A DNA stretch of 64,000 nucleotides from an uncultured Acidobacteriota bacterium (GTDB taxonomy: Bacteria; Acidobacteriota; Thermoanaerobaculia; UBA5066; Gp7-AA6). Within the stretch, counting starts at the first letter, position 1, and each line of letters starts with the position of its first letter. Positions 1 to 64,000 of the stretch are shown here, in pieces. A program made the position numbers and the translations under genes. The DNA lies in NCBI GenBank assembly GCA_963815865.1, contig CAWFIK010000003.1, positions 159,127 through 223,126 on the forward strand. The letters are read 5' to 3'. The notes under the pieces were generated by a model. That model had not been told where the DNA came from, made no database searches, and was given only the letters and a program-made list of their open reading frames with translations.

Positions 1-192
1 GGTGTCGCACCGGCATCCGCCGACGCGGGTCGTCCATCGGGGAGACAGTAACCAGTTCAATCCGCAGCCGGATTCGGGTTCTTCGGCGTCGGCCTCGGCT
101 CCTTCGGTGAGCATCGCGCCGCCTTCGATCGCGCGCGAGCCGGTGGTCATGGCCTCTCCCTCCGGCGACCGGTCCGCGCGGCCGCACTGACG

Positions 193-573
193 TTGGCCTC
201 CGACGTTCCCGCGCCGCGGAACCTCACCCCGGGACGGGTGTGGGTGGCGCGCTTCCTCGCGGTCGCCGCCGACGCGGTTCAGATCGTCGGGTTCCCTCTC
301 TTCGCGGCGGGCGCCGCGTCCCCGTGGAACGATCTTCTCGACTTCGTGGTCGCCGGCGCGATGACTCTCCTCGTCGGATGGCACTGGGCGTTCCTGCCGT
401 CGTTCTTCGCCGAGCTCGTGCCGGGGCTCGACCTCGTCCCGACGTGGACCCTGGCGGTCTTCTTCGCGACACGCTCGAAGACGCCGGCGCCCGCGCCGGG
501 CGCGAAACGCCACGACGCAATCGACACAGAGGTTCTGTCGTCGGAGTCCCTCGGTGCGAGGCCGTCCAAGTAA
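193..573 (+). CDS. small hydrophobic membrane protein (hypothetical)
   Basis: 126-codon ORF with strong third-position G/C bias. Hydrophobic helices include FLAVAADAVQIVGFPLFAAG and VVAGAMTLLVGWHWAFLPSFF. Start is uncertain (TTG 193 or GTG 238). Confidence 0.55.
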   Translation: MASDVPAPRNLTPGRVWVARFLAVAADAVQIVGFPLFAAGAASPWNDLLDFVVAGAMTLLVGWHWAFLPSFFAELVPGLDLVPTWTLAVFFATRSKTPAPAPGAKRHDAIDTEVLSSESLGARPSK

Positions 574-582
574 TCTGTCGCT

Positions 583-720
583 GTCATCCTGAGGAGCGAG
601 AGCGACGAAGGATCTGCCCTGAGGGATGAGCAGATCCTTCGCTTCGCTCAGAGCTTGCCCTGAGCAGGAGTCGACTGTCGAAGCGACGAGAGCAGATCCT
701 TCGCTTCGCTCAGGATGACA
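583..720. repeat. R1 palindromic intergenic repeat (gtcatYctgaggagcgaagcgacgaagRatctgc ... gcagatccttcgcttcgctcaggatgac), compound copy
   Basis: One left arm at 583-617 and two right-arm copies ending at about 653 and 720. The same element recurs at 8542, 16335, 27911, 43832, 55758 and 57884. Confidence 0.9.
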
Positions 721-750
721 GAGAGGGCGCGAAGGGATGACAGAGCCCGG

Positions 751-1455
751 CTACCGCGCCGGGAGCTTCTTCTCGATGTCCTTCAGGCGCTTCTCCATCT
801 GTTCGAGCTTCTCCTGCATCCGGTCGAGGCTCTCGGGGTGGCTCCGGAAGACCCAGGAGCGGCGTCCGAAGTCGCGGCCGATGTCCCTGCCGATGTCGCG
901 TCCTATCTCGCGTCCCATCCGGCCGAAGTCATGGCCGAGGTCTCCCAGATCCATCTCAACGCCGCGGCGCTCCTCGACCTTGACAGTCAGTTGCTTGACC
1001 GCGCGGTCGCGGGAGACCTCGAGCTTCAGCGTCTCGCCCGAGCCCATGCGCCGGACGGCGCGGGTCAGGTCGCGCGTGGACTCGATGCGGTCGCCGCCGG
1101 CGCGGGTGACGATGTCTCCGACCTGGATTCCGGCCTTCGACGCCGGGCTCTCGCTCTCGACTCCGGCGACGAGGACGCCGGCGTCCTTCGGCGCGCCGTA
1201 GTGCGTTCGCAACTCGGGAGTCATCTCGAGGAGGCGGACACCCAGGTATCCATGCCGCCCGTGCCCCGACATCTGCCACACGATCGGCTCGTCGCCGTCG
1301 CCGTCGGAGGAGAAGACGCCATCGTCGGTCACGACGATCGTTTTTTCCCTCGACTCGGACTTCTCCTTCGGCTCGTCGCCGGACGAAATCGCGGCGGCGC
1401 CGGACGCGAGCATGAAGAGGGCCAGCGGCAATGCCTTCAACGCTGTTGAGCTCAT
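751..1455 (-). CDS. periplasmic PDZ-domain protein
   Basis: ATG at 1455 preceded by aaggag. Signal peptide MSSTALKALPLALFMLASGAAA. PDZ-like core GYLGVRLLEM...GVLVAGVESESPASKAGIQVGDIVTRAGGDRI. C-terminus has a GRDIGRDIGRDFGR peptide repeat and a coiled-coil tail. Confidence 0.8.
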   Translation of the reverse strand: MSSTALKALPLALFMLASGAAAISSGDEPKEKSESREKTIVVTDDGVFSSDGDGDEPIVWQMSGHGRHGYLGVRLLEMTPELRTHYGAPKDAGVLVAGVESESPASKAGIQVGDIVTRAGGDRIESTRDLTRAVRRMGSGETLKLEVSRDRAVKQLTVKVEERRGVEMDLGDLGHDFGRMGREIGRDIGRDIGRDFGRRSWVFRSHPESLDRMQEKLEQMEKRLKDIEKKLPAR

Positions 1456-55851: not shown

Positions 55852-57861
55852 ATGCGGAGACGGGTCCTCGTCATCTGGGTCCTGGTGGCTTGTTGTGCGG
55901 GCGCGGTCCGCGCGCAATTCGACGAGGAGAAGCATGTTCGGGAGTTCGCGAAGAGGCTCGCGAAGGATCGGGACGCGCAGGAGAGGGCTTCGGCAGCGCG
56001 GTGGTTGGGGGGGAGGAAGAATCCGGAGGCGGTGGCGGCTCTGGCGAAGGCGTTGTCGGATCCGGACGCGTCGGTGAGGGAGGCGGCGGCTTCAGCGCTC
56101 TGGAGCACCGGGAAGGACGCGGTCGCGGCGAAGCCGGAGCTGACGAAGGCGCTCGCCGATCCGGATGCGGCGGTCATCGCGCGGGCGGCGGGGGCGCTGG
56201 CCGTGATGGACGTGCCGGACTCGGAGCTGGCGGAGGCGTGGCGGCAGGCGCTCGAGGGAGCGCGCGATGACGCGACGGCGTTTCTCGCGGCGCGCGGGTT
56301 GATCGGGATGGAGCGGGCGGAGAAGCTCGCGCCGCCGATCCTGACCTACCTGGCGAAGAGAGCGGAGGCGGCCGCGCGGCCGGCGCCGGGGCGGTCCATC
56401 TGGAACGACCGGGACAGCGCGGAGAACGCGGAGAAGGCGCTCAGCCATCTCCTCGCGAAGGACGCGGCGCCGGTCCTGCCGCTGCTCGACCGCACGGTGG
56501 CGCAGTCGCCGAACTCCGGGCGGTATGTCCTCGGCGCGCTCGCCTCGGTCAAGACTCTTCCGAAGGGAACGGTGGACCTCGCGCTCGCGCACACGCGCTC
56601 TTCTGTGGCGGAGACTCGGAACGCGGCGATCACGCTGGCGGGAAAGGTGACGAGCGAGCGCGAAGCGGCGCGTTGGATCCCGGAGGCGATCCGCCTGCTG
56701 GGCGATCCGGACGAGGGCGTTCGCATCGAGGCGTGCTGGGCGCTGAAGGGGGTCAAGGGACTGGCGCACGAGGCCGCGCCGGAGCTGGCACGGCTCCTTT
56801 CGAGCGACTCTCCTTCGAGGGTGCGGCACAGCGCCGCGGGCGCGCTCGAGGAGATCGGGAACGTCTCGAATCCAGTCCCGAAGTCGGCGAAGGCCGCCGT
56901 CGCCACCGCCGCGAAGGACGCGCTCGCGCGCGCGATGAAGGACAAGGACCACGACGTCGCGGAAGACGCGGTCGCCGCATACAACGTGCTCTACATCGAC
57001 AACGCTGAGATCGTGGCGGCACTGGCCGACGTCGCCGTCAACGGGGCCGACACGGGCGCGCGGCAGCGGGCGCTCCAGTGCCTGCGGAACCGCCAGGGAC
57101 AGGCGAAGGGCGTCGTCGAGACGATCCGTCCCCTGACGCGAGCCTCCGACAAGTACGTTGCGGACGGCGCGAAGACCGCGATCGAGTGGATCGGGCGCGG
57201 CGGCTCGGGTAGTCCCGGCGCGATCAGGACTGGCGGCGCCGCCTCTTCCGTCGCGCCCCCGGCAGCCGCGGCGGCGGCGCGCTCCGACTCGGCGCCGCGT
57301 GCCGGCTCCGCGCCTCCCGCCGGCGAGCAGCGCGGCCTCGCCGTCCTGCGCGAGCGCAACCTCGAGTTCAACGAGCCGAGCTTCTACCGCGCGTTGTCGG
57401 AAGCCGACACCGAGGCCGTACGCGCCTATCTCGACGGCGGAATGTCCGCCAAACACGTCTTCGTGGACTCGAACCGCCGCTCGCCGCTGATGGTCCTGTT
57501 CTTCGGCAGACAGGCCTGCGCGAATCCGGAGACGGGCCGCGTGCTCGTCAAGCTCCTCCTCGATCGCGGCGCCGACGTGAACCAGCAGGACGAGAAGAAG
57601 AACACCGCGCTGATGTTCGCCGCGGATACCTGCGACCGTCAGACGCTGCGCCTGCTGCTCAAGGCGGGCGCGAAGGTCAATGCGCGCAACTGGGCGAACC
57701 TGACGGCGCTCGAGATGGGAATCGTCTCCGGCAATCCCGGCCTCGAGGAGCTGATCGAAGCCGGCGCCCGCCTCGACGCCGCGAAGGCGAAGGCCTACGC
57801 CGAGGCCTACAAGAAGAACCCCAAAGCGCTCGCCCTCATCAAGAAGGCCTCGGCGACCTAA
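55852..57861 (+). CDS. secreted HEAT-repeat protein with C-terminal ankyrin repeats
   Basis: Signal peptide VLVIWVLVACCAGAVRA. Multiple HEAT/PBS-lyase-like units (ALAKALSDPDASVREAAASAL, LTKALADPDAAVIARAAGAL, ...). C-terminal ANK units (LLLDRGADVNQQDEKKNTALMFAA, LLLKAGAKVNARNWANLTALEM). Confidence 0.8.
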   Translation: MRRRVLVIWVLVACCAGAVRAQFDEEKHVREFAKRLAKDRDAQERASAARWLGGRKNPEAVAALAKALSDPDASVREAAASALWSTGKDAVAAKPELTKALADPDAAVIARAAGALAVMDVPDSELAEAWRQALEGARDDATAFLAARGLIGMERAEKLAPPILTYLAKRAEAAARPAPGRSIWNDRDSAENAEKALSHLLAKDAAPVLPLLDRTVAQSPNSGRYVLGALASVKTLPKGTVDLALAHTRSSVAETRNAAITLAGKVTSEREAARWIPEAIRLLGDPDEGVRIEACWALKGVKGLAHEAAPELARLLSSDSPSRVRHSAAGALEEIGNVSNPVPKSAKAAVATAAKDALARAMKDKDHDVAEDAVAAYNVLYIDNAEIVAALADVAVNGADTGARQRALQCLRNRQGQAKGVVETIRPLTRASDKYVADGAKTAIEWIGRGGSGSPGAIRTGGAASSVAPPAAAAAARSDSAPRAGSAPPAGEQRGLAVLRERNLEFNEPSFYRALSEADTEAVRAYLDGGMSAKHVFVDSNRRSPLMVLFFGRQACANPETGRVLVKLLLDRGADVNQQDEKKNTALMFAADTCDRQTLRLLLKAGAKVNARNWANLTALEMGIVSGNPGLEELIEAGARLDAAKAKAYAEAYKKNPKALALIKKASAT

Positions 57862-58181: not shown

Positions 58182-58505
58182 GTGACGCCCAAGGTAAAAC
58201 CCGGCGACAAGATCACGACGACCGTCAAGCTGTCGAAAGACTCGGACGTCAATTTCGCCGTCTTCCACGAATTCGAAAAGATCCTGAGCCCGAGTCCCGG
58301 CGTCTTCGAGTACACGGACGAATACGAGGTCCAGGCGACGGACAACCTCATCCTCTACACGTGGACGTTCCTGTTCGGGACCGATGACGGCGAGTACACG
58401 ATCGAGCTCGCCGTCAACGGCGATGACAAGTGCGGCGGCGCGGCGAAGGCCGCCGATGGCCGCGGGCCGTATCAGGGAAAGTGCTTCTTCGAGAAGAAGT
58501 CATGA
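58182..58505 (+). CDS. small beta-rich hypothetical protein, first gene of a three-gene operon
   Basis: ggagga SD followed by GTG. 107 aa, no signal peptide. The stop overlaps the next ATG (ATGA at 58502-58505). Confidence 0.6.
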   Translation: MTPKVKPGDKITTTVKLSKDSDVNFAVFHEFEKILSPSPGVFEYTDEYEVQATDNLILYTWTFLFGTDDGEYTIELAVNGDDKCGGAAKAADGRGPYQGKCFFEKKS

Positions 58506-59809
58506 CCGGGCGGCCGCGGGGCACGCCGCCCTGGTGGATTGTCCTTTCCCTGCTGCTCCTGCTGCCCGCCGGGGCATCGTCGCAGCCGGCTCCGAAGGAT
58601 TTCAGCGCTCGCCTCGATGAGGCGATCCAGGGCGTCGCGAAACGCTATTCGATTCCGCTCCCGCTTCAGGACAACGTCACTCTCGAGACGCTCCGGGCCC
58701 GCGCCGCCGCGATCGACACGGGGCGCGACGGCCGCCAGTTCACGGCGTCCTCGCTCGCGACGCCGCTTGCCACCGTCATCGATCAGCCCACGACGACCAA
58801 CTTCCTCTCGCTCGCGCTCGAGACGGGGGCCTTCTCGAAGACCGAGGACAACAACGCGTTGACCGTGACGACGACGTTATACGCGGTCAAACGCCTCTTC
58901 AACCCGACGCCGTGGCGCTCCCTGGAGGAGTACGGCGCCGACCGCAACCTGCGTTACTTCACCGGCTCGATGACGTTCGCCAAGGCGACGACGAACACGG
59001 CGAGCTCCTCCAGCCGCGTCCAGGCGTGGACGGTGCGATACCAGATCGGGAGCCGGGACCTACGCGACTTCTACACCGATCCGTCGGTCGAAACGCTCGG
59101 GTTCGCCTACGCGTTCATCCTGAAGGAGATCACGACTCTTCTGGCCCAGAAATTCCCCGGTAAGTCGGTGGACGACTATACGGTCGCGCAGATCGAGGAT
59201 GTCATCCTGAACTCCACCTTCATTCCCGACGGCGACGCGGCGAAGCGCCTTTCCCTGGTCTCCGGATCGTCCGTCACGGTCAAGGACCTGCTCGTCGTCC
59301 GCGGCGGGCTCGTGCAGCAGCTCATCGCGAAGAACGCACCGAAGGGCGTCGGCTCCGTCAGCTTCGGCGAGTCGCGGGACGACACCACGAACACGGACAT
59401 CTACCGATTCGCCGGAAGCTACCAGCGCAAGTTGAACGACGCGTTGCTGCTGACCGGGAATCTGTCGGGCGAATACCGCCAGCCCCGGGTGTCCTCGGCG
59501 AAGACGGCCTACGGCGGCACGGCCGCGGTGGAGCTCGCCGACTCGCTCAAGAACTTCAAGCTCGTGGACAGCGGCGACCCGTCGCGCCTCTCGATCGCGG
59601 TGAGCGCGCGCGCCGCCCAGCGGGCCAGGCCGGAGTTCATGGCCCAGGCGAAGCTGGAGTTCCTCCTTCCCAGGGGGGTCTCGATCCCGGTCTCCGTCAC
59701 CTGGGCGAATCGGACAGATCTGGTCTCCGAGAGGATCATCCGCGGCCACGTCGGGCTCTCCTTCGACGCGGCAAGTCTGCTGACGATCGGTGGAGTCGCG
59801 GCCCGGTGA
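58502..59809 (+). CDS. secreted hypothetical protein (possibly beta-barrel / outer-membrane associated)
   Basis: Signal peptide PPWWIVLSLLLLLPAGASS. 435 aa, rich in alternating beta-type segments. No family recognised. Confidence 0.65.
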   Translation: MTGRPRGTPPWWIVLSLLLLLPAGASSQPAPKDFSARLDEAIQGVAKRYSIPLPLQDNVTLETLRARAAAIDTGRDGRQFTASSLATPLATVIDQPTTTNFLSLALETGAFSKTEDNNALTVTTTLYAVKRLFNPTPWRSLEEYGADRNLRYFTGSMTFAKATTNTASSSSRVQAWTVRYQIGSRDLRDFYTDPSVETLGFAYAFILKEITTLLAQKFPGKSVDDYTVAQIEDVILNSTFIPDGDAAKRLSLVSGSSVTVKDLLVVRGGLVQQLIAKNAPKGVGSVSFGESRDDTTNTDIYRFAGSYQRKLNDALLLTGNLSGEYRQPRVSSAKTAYGGTAAVELADSLKNFKLVDSGDPSRLSIAVSARAAQRARPEFMAQAKLEFLLPRGVSIPVSVTWANRTDLVSERIIRGHVGLSFDAASLLTIGGVAAR

Positions 59810-59830
59810 GAGGAACTGGGGAGGACGCCG

Positions 59831-62800
59831 ATGTTTGACTCGGGCTCGCTCCGCAAGCTCAAGATGCCGGCGCTCGTCGCGCTGGCGCTTCTCATCGCGG
59901 TCTCGGGTTACTACCTCCTCCTCGCGGTCCGGCGAAGCACTTACCTGACCGCCAGCAATATCCGGCTCCTGACGACGATCGGCCACCAGTTCGACGACTG
60001 GGTGCGGCGCCAGGAGCAGATCTTCCGGCTCGTGATCGACTCCAAAGACCCCACCGCGATGACGAAGGAGTGGAAGTCGTCCGCGACGTGGAAGTTCGGG
60101 AAACGTCCGCTGCCGGAGGACTCGCCGCTGGAGGTCGAGCCGCCCACGCTCCTCATGGACGCGAGCGGCCGGCTGTCGCTGGAGCTCGATTCCCGGCAGG
60201 GCGACCAGCGAATCGATCAGCGGATCGTCCCGTTCGACGCGCCGATCTTCGAATCGCTGCAGAGGGACATTTTCGACATCGTCCTTCTGGCGGCGCCCGA
60301 CGGGCGGATCCTGAAGCAATCCGGCCAGGCGGATCTGTACCTGTCGGACCTCGGCTCGCTCGTCGCGCCGGGCGATTCGGCCCTCAAGGCGGGCCAGACC
60401 GCGGACGTCAAGGACCTCGCCGGGAGAGATTACAGGCTGTTTCTGCAGCCGTGTTGCGGGCGGCTCCGCGTCCGCACGAGCGACGCGAGCCAGCCGGCCG
60501 GTGGGAAGACGGACGCGATTTCGGCGGCCGAGAACAAGCCGCCCGCGGCGCTGGAGAAGGGCAAGGCCGCGAAGGCCGGTTCGAAAGAGAGCGGGGGAGC
60601 CGCCGGCTCGGCATCGTCCATCGCGGGCGCGGTTCGCTCGGGACTCGTCGTGTGCGGCCTCGTTCAGACCGGGACACTCACCGGGCGGCGCTTCGCCGTC
60701 TCCTTCACCACGATGCTGATCCTCGCCGGCATCCTGCTCATCATCGTCGTGAGCTGGCCGTTCATGAAGGTCGCCCTGATCGGCAACCGCCAGCGAGTCC
60801 GCCTGCTCGACGTCCTGCTCCTGGGGATCTCGAGTCTGCTCGTCCTCTCGATCGGCACGCTTTACCTGCTCGACTTCTACGCCTACCAGAGGCTCAAGAC
60901 TCACATCGACCTGGGGCTTCAGAGTTTTTCCGGAGCGATCCAGTCCAACATGAGAAAGGAGGTCGCGGCCGCGTACAGCCAGGCTCGGACGCTGCAATCG
61001 GCGGCCCTCTCGCGGCTCTTCCCGCAGGGCCGGCCGGGCGGGTCCGAGGGCCGGTTCCTTTCCGATCTCCTCCAGAGCCATCCCGACCCCGACCTCTCCT
61101 ACTACCCGTTCTTCGAGGCGTTCTCGCTGATCGATTCCAACGGGGCGCAGGTCGCCAAGTGGAGCGTGCGCGAGCGCTCGCAGTCCGCCCCGCTGATCTC
61201 GGTGAAGGACCGCGACTACTTTCTCCGCGTCAAAGAGAAACGCACCTGGTCGCTGGCGCCGGCGTGCGGCCGGCGTCTCGCCGACGGACGCTGCGGCCTG
61301 TGGCTCCCCGGGATCGATCGATTCGCGCTGGAGTCGATCCGTTCCATCACGAGAATGAACACGCAGGCGGTCCTGGCGATCCCGACCGATCGGGAGGACG
61401 TTCCGGTCGCCGCGCTCTCCTTTCCGATGATTTCCGTCATCAAGCCGGTCGTCGCTCCCGGCTTCGGATTCGCGGTGATCGAGGACGGAGAGAACGGGCG
61501 GGTCGTGTTTCACGACGACGACCGCCGGAATTTGATCGAGCAGTTCTTCCTCGAGACGGACATGGACAAGCGCCTGCGCTCCGTCGTGGCCGCCCGGCGC
61601 GCGGAGCTCATGAATCTCCGTTACTGGGGGGAGGACTATCGCGCGTACGTGGCGCCTCTCAAAGGTCTCCCATGGTCGCTCGTGACCTACTACCAGAAGG
61701 ACGTCGTTCGGAGCGTGAACGTCGATTCGATCGTGACGACTCTCCTCTTCCTGATTCCCTATATGACGGCGTGCATGGGCATCTGCTTCTTCATCCTCAT
61801 CTGGCCCCAGAGGCGCGCGACCTGGCTCTGGCCACATCCGCGCGGACTGAACGCCTATCTCGAGCTCGCGGTGTTCTACATAGTCGTCATTGGAGTGTTC
61901 GGCGCGGCGATCTATGTCTCCGGGCGGGAATTCGGCGGCCACGTCGTGCCCGACGGGCTCCTGATCCTGATCGCGTTCGCGATTCCGGCGCTGGCGTGGG
62001 TGGCGACGTACCTGCGGCTCCGAGCGGTGCGGCGGGCCTCCCCGATCCCCGGCGACGAGATCACCAATCCCAACCCGGAAGCCGAGGAGAAGGCGTGGCC
62101 GGAGCCGAACCAGCTCCTGTCGCTGTCGTACATGGGCGCGGCGGCGCTCCTGCTCGTCATCTCGGGCGCCATGCCGACCGCGGCGCTGTTCAAGCTCGCC
62201 CACTCCATCCAGATCGTGCCGTTCATCAAGTACAACCAGGTGAGGCTCGTGGCGGCGCTCGGGGAGCGCCAGCAGCGCGCGGAGAAGGAGCTCGATTCCT
62301 TCTCGTCCCGGAGTAAGTCGGTCGATCTGTCGTCGCCGGGAGAACCGCCGTCCACGCTCTCCTCGCGGCGGACCGGGATCGGCGGCGTGCAGCTCGCCTT
62401 CGACGACGGAAAGGGGAACAAGCGCCCGGTCGCGCCGGTGGACATCTACAACCAGCCGTTCGGCACGACCATCGCCAGGGTACCGGACGCTTCCGCGGGC
62501 GGACCTGGTCCCGCGCCGGGGGGACGCCGCCGGATGTCCCCACCGACCGAGTCGCTGCCGGGATTCCTGGAGCCGTATCTTCCTTATTACTCGGACTTCT
62601 CGGTCGAACGGCGAGAGCTGCTGCACGACGAATCGGCCGACGGGAGCCGCACCTGGAAGCGCGCTCCGGGCAACCGCGTCGTCCTGACGAGCGAGGGCTC
62701 CGGCAACGGCGCGCTCGAGGTCAGCTCCATCGTGCCGACGTTCGGCGGGCTGCCGGCCTTCCTCAAGGAGAGGAGCCTGGGATTGATCCTCATCTCCGGC

Positions 62801-64000
62801 GTCGTCCTCTTGCTTGCCCTCGTGATCGCGCGATTCGTCGTCCGGCGCGTCTTTCTCCTGGACGTTCCGTTCTGGTCCTCGGGCTCGGGGGGATTCGCCG
62901 CGCCCGGGCAGAGCGTGTTCGTCGTCTGCCGGAGAGACAACCTGAGGAACGCGTTCCTCGACGGCCGCCGGTTCGAGAAGCTGGACCTTGCGGCGCTCCT
63001 GTCACCCGAAGCGAAGCCGGGAGATTGGGACTCGGCCTTGTCCGGCGTCGAGAGGACGCTCTCGGGCGAGCCCGTGCTCCTCGATCGGTTCGAGAAAGGC
63101 TCGGGGGATGTTCAGATGAGCGCGAGGAAGCTCTGGCTCGTCGAGCAACTCGTCGCGCAGCACCGCCGGGTGGTCATTCTCTCCACGTTCAGTCCCGTGC
63201 CACTGCAGCATGGAAGCCCTCTCGCCGGGCCGGGCTCGAAAGCCGACGACGGGCCCAGCGCCGAGCAGAGATGGGCGTCCCTCCTGACCTCGTCCTTCAT
63301 GGTCATGGATCTCGATCCGCGGTTCGAGACGGACGCGGACGATTCCTCACGGCCGCCGGGGCGCATGACCATCCTGGAACAGAGCCTCGGGAAGGGGTGG
63401 CGGGCCTGGCTGCGAGATTTCTCCGCGCGGTTCCGGGTCGGCCAGTATCGGAAGGTCCGGCTCGTCCTCGAGCGGGAGTGCGCCGGCAATCCGTATCTCG
63501 CTTCGATCCACGACGACCTGGATCGGATGATCCGGCGCCGCGGCGAGGAGGGGCTCGACCGCGAGGAGGTCCTGGCGGAGATCGAGGAGCGCGCGTCCAA
63601 TTACTACGAAGCCCTATGGGCCTGCTGCTCACAGGTCGAGAAGCTCGCGCTCGAGCACCTCGCCGAGGACGGTTTCGCCAACTACCGCGACAGCAAGATC
63701 GTCCGGCGATTGATCGCCCGCGGCCTCGTGCGGAGAGACCCCCACCTGCGGCTCATGAACGAGACGTTCCGGCGCTTCGTCGTCTCGACCGTCCGGCGCA
63801 ATGAAATCGCGGCGCTGGAGCAGGACACCCAGGCAAGCGCCTGGGACCACTTCAAGCGCCCGTTCGCGACGATCCTCGCGCTCGTCCTCGTGCTCTTCGC
63901 CGTCACCCAGAAGGAGCGTTTCGACGCCACGATGGCGATCATCCTCGGCGCGACCGGCGTCCTTCCATCGCTCCTGAAGCTCGCGGGTCTCCTGATCGGC
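59831..64000 (+). CDS. giant polytopic membrane protein (more than 1390 aa, 3' end outside the window): two extracytoplasmic regions (one Cache-like), about 9 or more TM helices, cytoplasmic P-loop-less STAND-like module + winged helix
   Basis: ggggagga SD followed by ATG 59831. I translated this frame by hand to position 64000 and found no stop; it is absent from the supplied ORF track. The long ORFs 60070-62316(+) and 59060-62626(-) are its Arg-rich shadow frames. Confidence 0.8.
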   Translation, partial: MFDSGSLRKLKMPALVALALLIAVSGYYLLLAVRRSTYLTASNIRLLTTIGHQFDDWVRRQEQIFRLVIDSKDPTAMTKEWKSSATWKFGKRPLPEDSPLEVEPPTLLMDASGRLSLELDSRQGDQRIDQRIVPFDAPIFESLQRDIFDIVLLAAPDGRILKQSGQADLYLSDLGSLVAPGDSALKAGQTADVKDLAGRDYRLFLQPCCGRLRVRTSDASQPAGGKTDAISAAENKPPAALEKGKAAKAGSKESGGAAGSASSIAGAVRSGLVVCGLVQTGTLTGRRFAVSFTTMLILAGILLIIVVSWPFMKVALIGNRQRVRLLDVLLLGISSLLVLSIGTLYLLDFYAYQRLKTHIDLGLQSFSGAIQSNMRKEVAAAYSQARTLQSAALSRLFPQGRPGGSEGRFLSDLLQSHPDPDLSYYPFFEAFSLIDSNGAQVAKWSVRERSQSAPLISVKDRDYFLRVKEKRTWSLAPACGRRLADGRCGLWLPGIDRFALESIRSITRMNTQAVLAIPTDREDVPVAALSFPMISVIKPVVAPGFGFAVIEDGENGRVVFHDDDRRNLIEQFFLETDMDKRLRSVVAARRAELMNLRYWGEDYRAYVAPLKGLPWSLVTYYQKDVVRSVNVDSIVTTLLFLIPYMTACMGICFFILIWPQRRATWLWPHPRGLNAYLELAVFYIVVIGVFGAAIYVSGREFGGHVVPDGLLILIAFAIPALAWVATYLRLRAVRRASPIPGDEITNPNPEAEEKAWPEPNQLLSLSYMGAAALLLVISGAMPTAALFKLAHSIQIVPFIKYNQVRLVAALGERQQRAEKELDSFSSRSKSVDLSSPGEPPSTLSSRRTGIGGVQLAFDDGKGNKRPVAPVDIYNQPFGTTIARVPDASAGGPGPAPGGRRRMSPPTESLPGFLEPYLPYYSDFSVERRELLHDESADGSRTWKRAPGNRVVLTSEGSGNGALEVSSIVPTFGGLPAFLKERSLGLILISGVVLLLALVIARFVVRRVFLLDVPFWSSGSGGFAAPGQSVFVVCRRDNLRNAFLDGRRFEKLDLAALLSPEAKPGDWDSALSGVERTLSGEPVLLDRFEKGSGDVQMSARKLWLVEQLVAQHRRVVILSTFSPVPLQHGSPLAGPGSKADDGPSAEQRWASLLTSSFMVMDLDPRFETDADDSSRPPGRMTILEQSLGKGWRAWLRDFSARFRVGQYRKVRLVLERECAGNPYLASIHDDLDRMIRRRGEEGLDREEVLAEIEERASNYYEALWACCSQVEKLALEHLAEDGFANYRDSKIVRRLIARGLVRRDPHLRLMNETFRRFVVSTVRRNEIAALEQDTQASAWDHFKRPFATILALVLVLFAVTQKERFDATMAIILGATGVLPSLLKLAGLLIG

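Follow-up and report, generated by a model that had tools for sequence, protein, structure and literature searches.

What does the long open reading frame (ORF) at the right-hand edge of a 64,000-nucleotide stretch of Acidobacteriota DNA encode, and does its product work together with those of the two small genes in front of it? The stretch, called the window in the following, is C3:159127-223126 (contig CAWFIK010000003.1) in the 4.3-Mb assembly of 11 contigs of an uncultured Thermoanaerobaculia bacterium of the genus Gp7-AA6. A sequence-only reading of the window had proposed an operon of three genes, encoding proteins of 107 residues (p107), 435 residues (p435) and more than 1390 residues (the giant protein), and had described the last of these as an unannotated membrane protein. 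With moderate confidence, the giant protein is read here as an inner-membrane protein of 1400 residues that acts on its own as a ligand-sensing transmembrane switch and that belongs to a large unnamed family of receptors combining Cache domains, ten transmembrane (TM) helices and a STAND-like module. The coordinates of all features are collected in Table 1.

Three genuine genes at the window edge

The gene junctions described in the sequence-only reading were all confirmed. The p107 gene starts with GTG, with GGAGG located 7-8 nt before the start codon, and is joined by an ATGA overlap at 58502-58505 to the p435 gene, the ATG of which is at 58502. The stop codon of p435 (TGA, 59807-59809) is separated from the ATG of the giant gene at 59831 by a gap of 21 nt that carries GGAGG as a good Shine-Dalgarno (SD) sequence. 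The frame from 59831 contains no overlooked stop and is open to base 64000. When the downstream contig sequence was fetched, a stop codon was found 33 nt beyond the window end, which completes the gene at 1400 codons instead of leaving it open-ended; the last 10 codons and the stop lie outside the window.

Despite the shadow ORFs that are common in a genome of 66% GC, p107, p435 and the giant ORF are genuine genes, because GC at third codon positions was 0.86-0.90 (0.86 in p107) as compared with 0.38-0.50 at second positions, whereas codon-position GC was flat in the 320-nt spacer upstream of p107. Searches for a riboswitch in this 320-nt leader, for promoters or terminators and for mobile-element signatures in the surroundings of the p107-p435 pair gave nothing above chance.

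Membrane topology of the giant protein

Ten TM helices were placed by hydropathy at residues 15-33, 289-307, 328-346, 639-657, 679-697, 710-728, 762-787, 986-1004, 1341-1359 and 1370-1388. Since short loops rich in Arg and Lys follow TM2, TM4, TM6 and TM8, the N-terminal domain D1 (34-288), the Cache region (347-638) and a third domain, D3 (788-985), are predicted to be periplasmic and residues 1005-1340 to be cytoplasmic. An AlphaFold model of residues 270-1389, based on 28 homologs, had a mean predicted local distance difference test score (pLDDT) of 75.8 and a predicted template-modelling score (pTM) of 0.68. Hydropathy and model together reproduced the helix layout and the domain order that had been read from the sequence.

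One segment of that earlier layout has to be revised. Residues 788-985, between TM7 and TM8, had been taken for a cytoplasmic linker; by helix parity they are predicted to be periplasmic, with a stalk helix and a beta-rich domain. In the model, D3 consists of a 60-residue helix that continues from TM7 and of a six-stranded domain thereafter, with pLDDT mostly at 66-89. Its probable periplasmic location follows from its position, four TM helices away from the dCache domain and one TM helix away from the cytoplasmic module. When compared with the dCache profile by hhalign, D3 showed no similarity.

The periplasmic sensor domains

The Cache-like signature pointed out in the sequence-only reading is supported by both sequence and predicted fold. 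The Pfam model dCache_1 (PF02743) matched residues 399-619 with 36.1 bits (E 6.5e-9), which is below the Pfam gathering score of 45 bits; it was matched by 26 of the 28 homologs at E <= 0.1, and one relative scored 46.7 bits. In a Foldseek search against the PDB, the top 50 matches were all dCache ligand-binding domains (among them PctA, Mlp24, DctB, TlpC and McpH), with target TM-scores of 0.5-0.7 and, for PctA (5ltx/5t7m), of 0.69-0.70. The order of secondary-structure elements in residues 347-638 of the AlphaFold model agrees with a double PAS-like fold behind a long N-terminal stalk helix. The domain is predicted to be extracytoplasmic, between TM3 and TM4, and the positive-inside loops are consistent with this.

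For D1, a Pfam scan returned nothing significant. In a profile-profile comparison by hhalign, D1 matched part of the dCache profile of the family (probability 88.5%, E 2.7e-6), while comparisons with the cytoplasmic module, included as controls, gave E 0.6-0.7 and all controls had E > 0.4. D1 also contains an FxQPCC motif with adjacent cysteines (window ~60440-60460, residues 204-210), of which P207 is nearly invariant across the family; this motif could be a redox or metal site.

A cytoplasmic module derived from a P-loop NTPase

For the analysis of the cytoplasmic module, residues 1005-1345 were aligned with 21 homologous segments and the region was modelled on its own. The model (pLDDT 69.6, pTM 0.43) showed a five-strand beta-alpha pattern, a helical region (lid) and a winged-helix-like end. 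The best Foldseek matches in the PDB were Orc1/Cdc6 (2qby_A; E 5e-4), Hda, DnaA, RFC subunits, the STAND protein Avs4 and IstB. These matches were weak (E 5e-4 to 5e-2, TM-scores 0.22-0.45) but fell into one structural class, and those to Orc1/Cdc6 and Avs4 covered about 345-375 alignment columns of the 341-residue module.

The Walker A motif GxxxxGK[ST] is absent from the giant protein, and CRRDNLRN occupies its position. In 10 of the 180 top family members, GPPxSGK[ST] is present directly after beta1 and aligns to CRRDNLRN without gaps; these P-loop-bearing members share the dCache domain and the TM layout of the giant protein. Since a canonical Walker A occurs in some relatives at the corresponding place, the module is derived from a P-loop NTPase, and the P-loop has been lost in the clade of the giant protein, in the protein itself as in most of its close relatives. 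The term NTPase-like, used for the module in the sequence-only reading, has to be corrected in this respect.

Other conserved features of the module are kept. The predicted beta3 ends in the Walker-B-like stretch VLLDRFE, of which F1087 and E1088 hardly vary in the family, and the Asp shifts by one position between clades. In the P-loop-less clade, the FE of DxFE, a sensor-1-like Ser, a highly conserved winged helix and, ahead of beta5, an RW pair are present. No other part of the giant protein is as conserved as the winged helix, which is rich in Arg (YYxxLWAxCSxxEKLxLxHLAxxGxxNxxxxxxxRRLxxRGLVRRDPxLRLMNETFRRFV).

In the curated libraries Pfam, NCBIfam and PADLOC, no model covers the module. 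The best curated-model scores among P-loop-bearing relatives were obtained for nSTAND3 (E 0.0026) and AAA_16 (E 0.23), in one sequence each. Sequence-profile searches of the PDB, run with the full-length family, the P-loop-bearing modules, p435 and p107, gave only spurious matches to G-protein-coupled receptors or ENY2 or generic P-loop matches. The alpha/beta domain was at first read as a CheY-like pseudo-receiver, and this was dropped in view of the P-loop-bearing homologs and the AAA+ fold matches.

Six members of about 400-470 aa (P0114, P0117, P0123, P0144, P0170 and P0173) begin with Met and contain, besides the module, only a single TM helix and the TM hairpin at the C-terminus. Walker A is intact in three of the six. 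These short proteins may be minimal versions that stand alone, or pieces of genes that have been split.

Size, distribution and genomic context of the family

A profile of the module, searched against 1.84 billion cluster representatives, retrieved 3179 proteins at E <= 1e-3 and 842 at E <= 1e-30. Most members are 1250-1650 aa long and carry the module near the C-terminus. About 30 full-length homologs of the giant protein, with identities of 19-89%, were available, and NCBI labels homologs 'cache domain-containing protein', so that the earlier description as unannotated needs correction.

Within the class, the giant gene is present in 19 of 301 genomes. The carriers comprise two of the four sampled genomes of its own genus, none in the other listed genera of its own family and many genera of another Thermoanaerobaculia family, several genomes of which have two copies. 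In a scan of species-representative genomes, the same architecture of 1300-1450 aa was found in Thermoanaerobaculia, Vicinamibacterales, Acidobacteriaceae, Ca. Brocadia, KSB1 and Gemmatimonadota, and the KSB1 homolog has a Walker A. At three loci, L044 (G115:C79), L059 and L062 (metagenome-assembled genome (MAG) CAWALG), the giant homolog is spread over two to five frames. One MAG apparently has three paralogous loci, and the frame breaks may be assembly indels or decaying copies.

Neighbouring genes were compared at 42 family loci by crude gene calls and subsequently with all ORFs within 6 kb. No neighbour was common to more than five loci, and the shared neighbours reflected synteny between close relatives. 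This short-range synteny involved a short-chain or alcohol dehydrogenase (SDR/ADH) gene and a HEAT/ankyrin gene in the clade of the giant protein, and RNase E/G in family f5. The HEAT/ankyrin gene is the only neighbour that keeps its place directly upstream of the giant gene in close relatives, at L004, in the same-genus sister genome G036 and at L056, where only a C-terminal remnant matches. Downstream of giant homologs, the genes were heterogeneous (GGDEF-EAL, CARDB/BNR, ADH, lipase-like).

Comparison with known receptors and NTPases

The dCache_1 receptors, among them the chemoreceptors PctA/PctB, Mlp24, TlpC and McpH and the kinases DctB and KinD, likewise carry a double-Cache domain in the periplasm, with a TM helix on either side. 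The giant protein adds two periplasmic domains, ten TM helices and the AAA+/STAND-like cytoplasmic module, and it lacks their outputs: no Pfam or NCBIfam match to MCPsignal, HisKA/HATPase_c, GGDEF, EAL, cyclase, PP2C or STYK domains was obtained for the giant protein or its 28 homologs. Upadhyay et al. (2016, PMC4822843) report no Cache domains other than those accompanied by known output domains.

With the STAND NTPases (NB-ARC/NACHT/Avs/MalT) and the AAA+ initiator clade (Orc1/Cdc6, DnaA, Hda), the module has the predicted order of alpha/beta domain, lid and winged helix in common; its fold matches include 2qby_A, 3sc3, 2hcb and 8dgf, it has a polar residue at the sensor-1 position, and it has relatives with canonical Walker A. 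The D-x-F-E with which beta3 ends is reminiscent of DGxDE, the extended Walker B reported for NACHT proteins. Unlike these NTPases, the giant protein has no Walker A, and no Pfam STAND or AAA model is significant. Its module is embedded between TM helices, its sensors are extracytoplasmic and N-terminal instead of C-terminal repeats, and it has no effector domain.

The KAP P-loop NTPases are membrane-associated, with TM helices inserted inside the NTPase domain. They, too, combine a P-loop NTPase-derived domain and TM helices in one polypeptide, but the TM helices of the giant protein flank the module instead of interrupting it, and neither the giant protein nor its P-loop-bearing relatives matched KAP_NTPase (PF07693).

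By fold, the sensor part is an ordinary dCache_1 domain. The output part is similar to modules of the STAND/Orc type but does not pass the sequence tests by which these are defined. The two together are absent from the curated libraries and from the literature searched, in which no description of a Cache-plus-STAND or membrane-STAND architecture was found. In this respect, the sequence-only reading, in which neither the architecture nor the partner genes had been recognised, is borne out.

The p107-p435 pair is an accessory cassette

The p435 protein carries a Sec-type signal peptide (...LLLLLPAGA/SSQ), and the motif GVSIPxSxTxxNRTxLxxERxxRGxxGxxFD is conserved in its C-terminal part. Its family comprises 3 clusters among 5.8 billion proteins. 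Neither p107 nor p435 matched Pfam, NCBIfam or PADLOC, and profile searches of the PDB gave no genuine match. Both proteins were found only in this genome (G000) and in G036, with 75% identity for p435 and 68% for p107, the latter being the only p107 homolog; they were absent from all 21 other genomes tested. The ATGA overlap and the SD sequence are kept in both genomes, and in the window p107 and p435 are probably co-transcribed and translationally coupled. The two genomes differ in gene order, which is HEAT/ankyrin, p107, p435, giant here and HEAT/ankyrin, giant, p107, p435 in G036.

The sequence-only reading had asked whether the trio co-occurs elsewhere. It does so only in G000 and G036, in differing orders, and about 40 other loci lack it; genes unlinked elsewhere are an outcome that the sequence-only reading itself had named as speaking against its proposal. 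At L004 and L056, where the giant protein is 77% and 89% identical, the giant gene directly follows the HEAT/ankyrin gene and the pair is absent, as it is at five further close loci. Since p107 and p435 are confined to G000 and G036 and are absent beside close homologs of the giant gene, they form a genus-restricted accessory cassette and not a conserved component of the receptor.

A true three-component system in this genus, encoded by one operon, is nevertheless conceivable, though unlikely. The exported p435 would then be a co-receptor, a ligand presenter or a substrate for the periplasmic domains, and p107 a cytosolic chaperone or partner. In favour of such a system, the ATGA coupling, the 21-nt gap and the SD sequences link the three genes here, and in G036 the pair is co-oriented with the giant gene at a distance of about 95 nt on its other side, so that the adjacency outlived a rearrangement. 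Moreover, at L038 a Metallophos-like gene, a 125-aa gene and a 508-aa gene carrying the p435 C-terminal motif precede a giant gene of 72% identity; the p435-like family thus occurs at four places (G000, G036, L038, L095), three of which adjoin a giant homolog. The fourth place argues against it: at L095 the same cassette (Metallophos-like / 123 aa / 518 aa) is followed by the gene of an unrelated protein of 909 aa, and there is no giant gene. The 508-aa protein shares only its C-terminal 56 aa significantly with p435, and the small protein of the L038/L095 cassette showed no significant similarity to p107 by BLASTP or hhalign. In addition to the absence of the pair from close loci and from the other genomes tested, members of the receptor family elsewhere clearly function without p107 and p435. 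The adjacency of cassette and receptor is notable and rests on very few cases, and a genuine functional link between them at this locus is doubtful.

The 909-aa protein (L095 7642-10371) has TM segments and a GGGIRS stretch like the patatin oxyanion-hole motif; it had no Pfam match.

Proposed function and alternatives

Cache domains are the commonest extracellular sensors in prokaryotes, and the outputs with which they have been connected so far are few, namely chemoreceptor signalling, kinases, cyclases and phosphatases. In the mechanism proposed for the giant protein, the periplasmic Cache domains would bind a ligand, and the signal would pass through the TM bundle to the membrane-clamped module. 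Held by TM8 and the TM9-10 hairpin, the module would switch in the manner of STAND and initiator AAA+ proteins, by a change in its conformation or in its oligomeric state. This switch may be nucleotide-dependent in the P-loop-bearing relatives and nucleotide-independent in the clade of the giant protein. Since neither a conserved partner gene nor an output domain recognisable as enzymatic or DNA-binding was found, the output would most likely be the protein's own TM bundle, through gating or assembly, or the recruitment of an unlinked partner by the conserved basic face of the winged helix.

Several points weigh against this reading. The mechanism is one that we infer as a whole. The model of the module is of moderate confidence and its Foldseek matches are weak, as given above, and sequence searches, among them a Pfam scan of 22 module sequences, did not connect the module with any named AAA+ or STAND family. 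The topology of D3 rests on the counting of TM helices, and the basic-rich stalk helix after TM7 would normally suggest the cytoplasm. Finally, the p107-p435 pair keeps its adjacency, its shared orientation and its tight spacing to the giant gene in two gene orders, and a paralogous cassette adjoins a giant homolog at L038, so that a local functional link retains some probability.

Two further explanations give the module a different task. If it belonged to an antiphage or conflict sensor of the STAND type (Avs/NLR-like), the polytopic membrane part would be a pore-forming effector triggered by oligomerisation, leading to abortive infection. The organisation into nucleotide-binding domain, helical region and winged helix is STAND-like, Avs4 is among the fold matches, nSTAND3 faintly matched one P-loop-bearing relative, no other output domain is present, and the distribution in the class is patchy. 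The locus itself argues otherwise: none of the three proteins matched PADLOC-DB at E <= 1, and the neighbours are housekeeping genes (RNase E/G, dehydrogenases, peptidases), so that the link to defence islands considered in the sequence-only reading was not seen. Moreover, the place of diversifying cytoplasmic repeats is taken by extracytoplasmic Cache domains, in which many residues are invariant, most members have lost the P-loop, and two copies are retained in several genomes of the other family. A defence role is therefore regarded as very improbable. A membrane-tethered transcription regulator, in which the basic winged helix would bind DNA in the manner of ToxR or CadC when the Cache domains are occupied, appears to be just as remote. 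The Arg-rich winged helix is the most conserved segment, and Orc1/Cdc6, the best fold match, binds DNA through its winged helix. In the giant protein, however, this element is clamped between the alpha/beta domain and the TM hairpin, which restricts access to DNA, and in NB-ARC and NACHT structures the winged helix normally packs against the nucleotide-binding domain and not on DNA. No Pfam helix-turn-helix model matched, apart from a lone MarR_2 match (E 0.27) in 1 of 22 members.

A bolder version of the receptor reading, which is considered rather unlikely, would make these proteins an unrecognised class of transmembrane 'NLR-like' receptors. An extracellular ligand on the Cache domains would drive the assembly of a membrane-clamped module of nucleotide-binding oligomerisation domain and winged helix, the effector, a gated pore or channel, would be formed by the 10-TM bundle of the protein itself, the P-loop-less clade would operate independently of nucleotide, and p435 might be recruited as a co-receptor in this genus.

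The interest of the giant protein lies in its family and not in the three-gene system, which is unsupported. The family comprises thousands of clusters in several phyla, and in its members a ten-helix membrane domain connects Cache sensors with a nucleotide switch of Orc/STAND-like type, with no known output present. If the proposed mechanism were true, it would represent a new mode of signalling across the membrane, and the series from ATP-dependent members to P-loop-less relatives would offer a natural system for studying the loss of nucleotide control. For annotation, the module merits a family model of its own, as the proteins are now labelled only 'cache domain-containing protein' or 'hypothetical'.

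Features and surroundings of the locus

Table 1. Genes, domains and motifs of the p107-p435-giant gene region (window coordinates).
Feature	Coordinates	Residues	Strand	Description and basis
p107 gene	58182..58505		+	107 aa, beta-rich, without signal peptide, GTG start; first gene of the two-gene cassette
p435 gene	58502..59809		+	435 aa, exported orphan, Sec-type signal peptide
Giant receptor gene	59831..64000 (continues 33 nt past window)		+	ORF; 1400 aa
TM1	59873..59929	15-33	+	N-in anchor; hydropathy 2.48, R/K N-terminal to helix
D1	59930..60694	34-288	+	periplasmic (predicted); Cache/PAS-like core and low-complexity Ala/Gly/Lys linker; profile-profile comparison
TM2-TM3 hairpin	60695..60868	289-346	+	conserved basic cytoplasmic loop WPFxKxALIGxRQRVRLxD; hydropathy, alignment, AlphaFold
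dCache_1 domain	60869..61744	347-638	+	periplasmic (predicted); Pfam PF02743 and Foldseek
TM4-TM7 bundle	61745..62191	639-787	+	conserved cytoplasmic loop RATWLWP; hydropathy, AlphaFold
D3	62192..62785	788-985	+	stalk helix and six-stranded beta-rich domain; probably periplasmic; AlphaFold
TM8	62786..62842	986-1004	+	hydropathy 2.85; helix predicted in model
Cytoplasmic AAA+/STAND-like module	62843..63850	1005-1340	+	AlphaFold and Foldseek
Degenerate Walker A position CRRDNLRN	62927..62950	1033-1040	+	directly after beta1 (SVFVV)
Walker-B-like DRFE	63083..63094	1085-1088	+	end of beta3
Winged-helix region	63560..63790	~1244-1320	+	alignment and model
TM9-TM10 hairpin	63851..63994	1341-1388	+	re-anchors module to membrane; hydropathy, AlphaFold

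The HEAT/ankyrin gene of this genome, at window positions 55852-57861, encodes a secreted protein and is separated from the giant gene by the p107-p435 cassette. Behind the cluster, a gene of 253-279 aa is found in this genome (L003 7820-8581) and in G036 (L039 14575-15414); L004 lacks it, and the giant gene there runs directly into the SDR gene. The region around the cluster has been remodelled more than once. Farther downstream, a gene for an M13 peptidase on the minus strand (L003 9474-11326, ~2.4-4.2 kb past the window end) is spread over at least three frames. The corresponding gene at L004 is a single gene of 685 aa, and the copy in this genome may be a pseudogene or reflect indel errors of the MAG.

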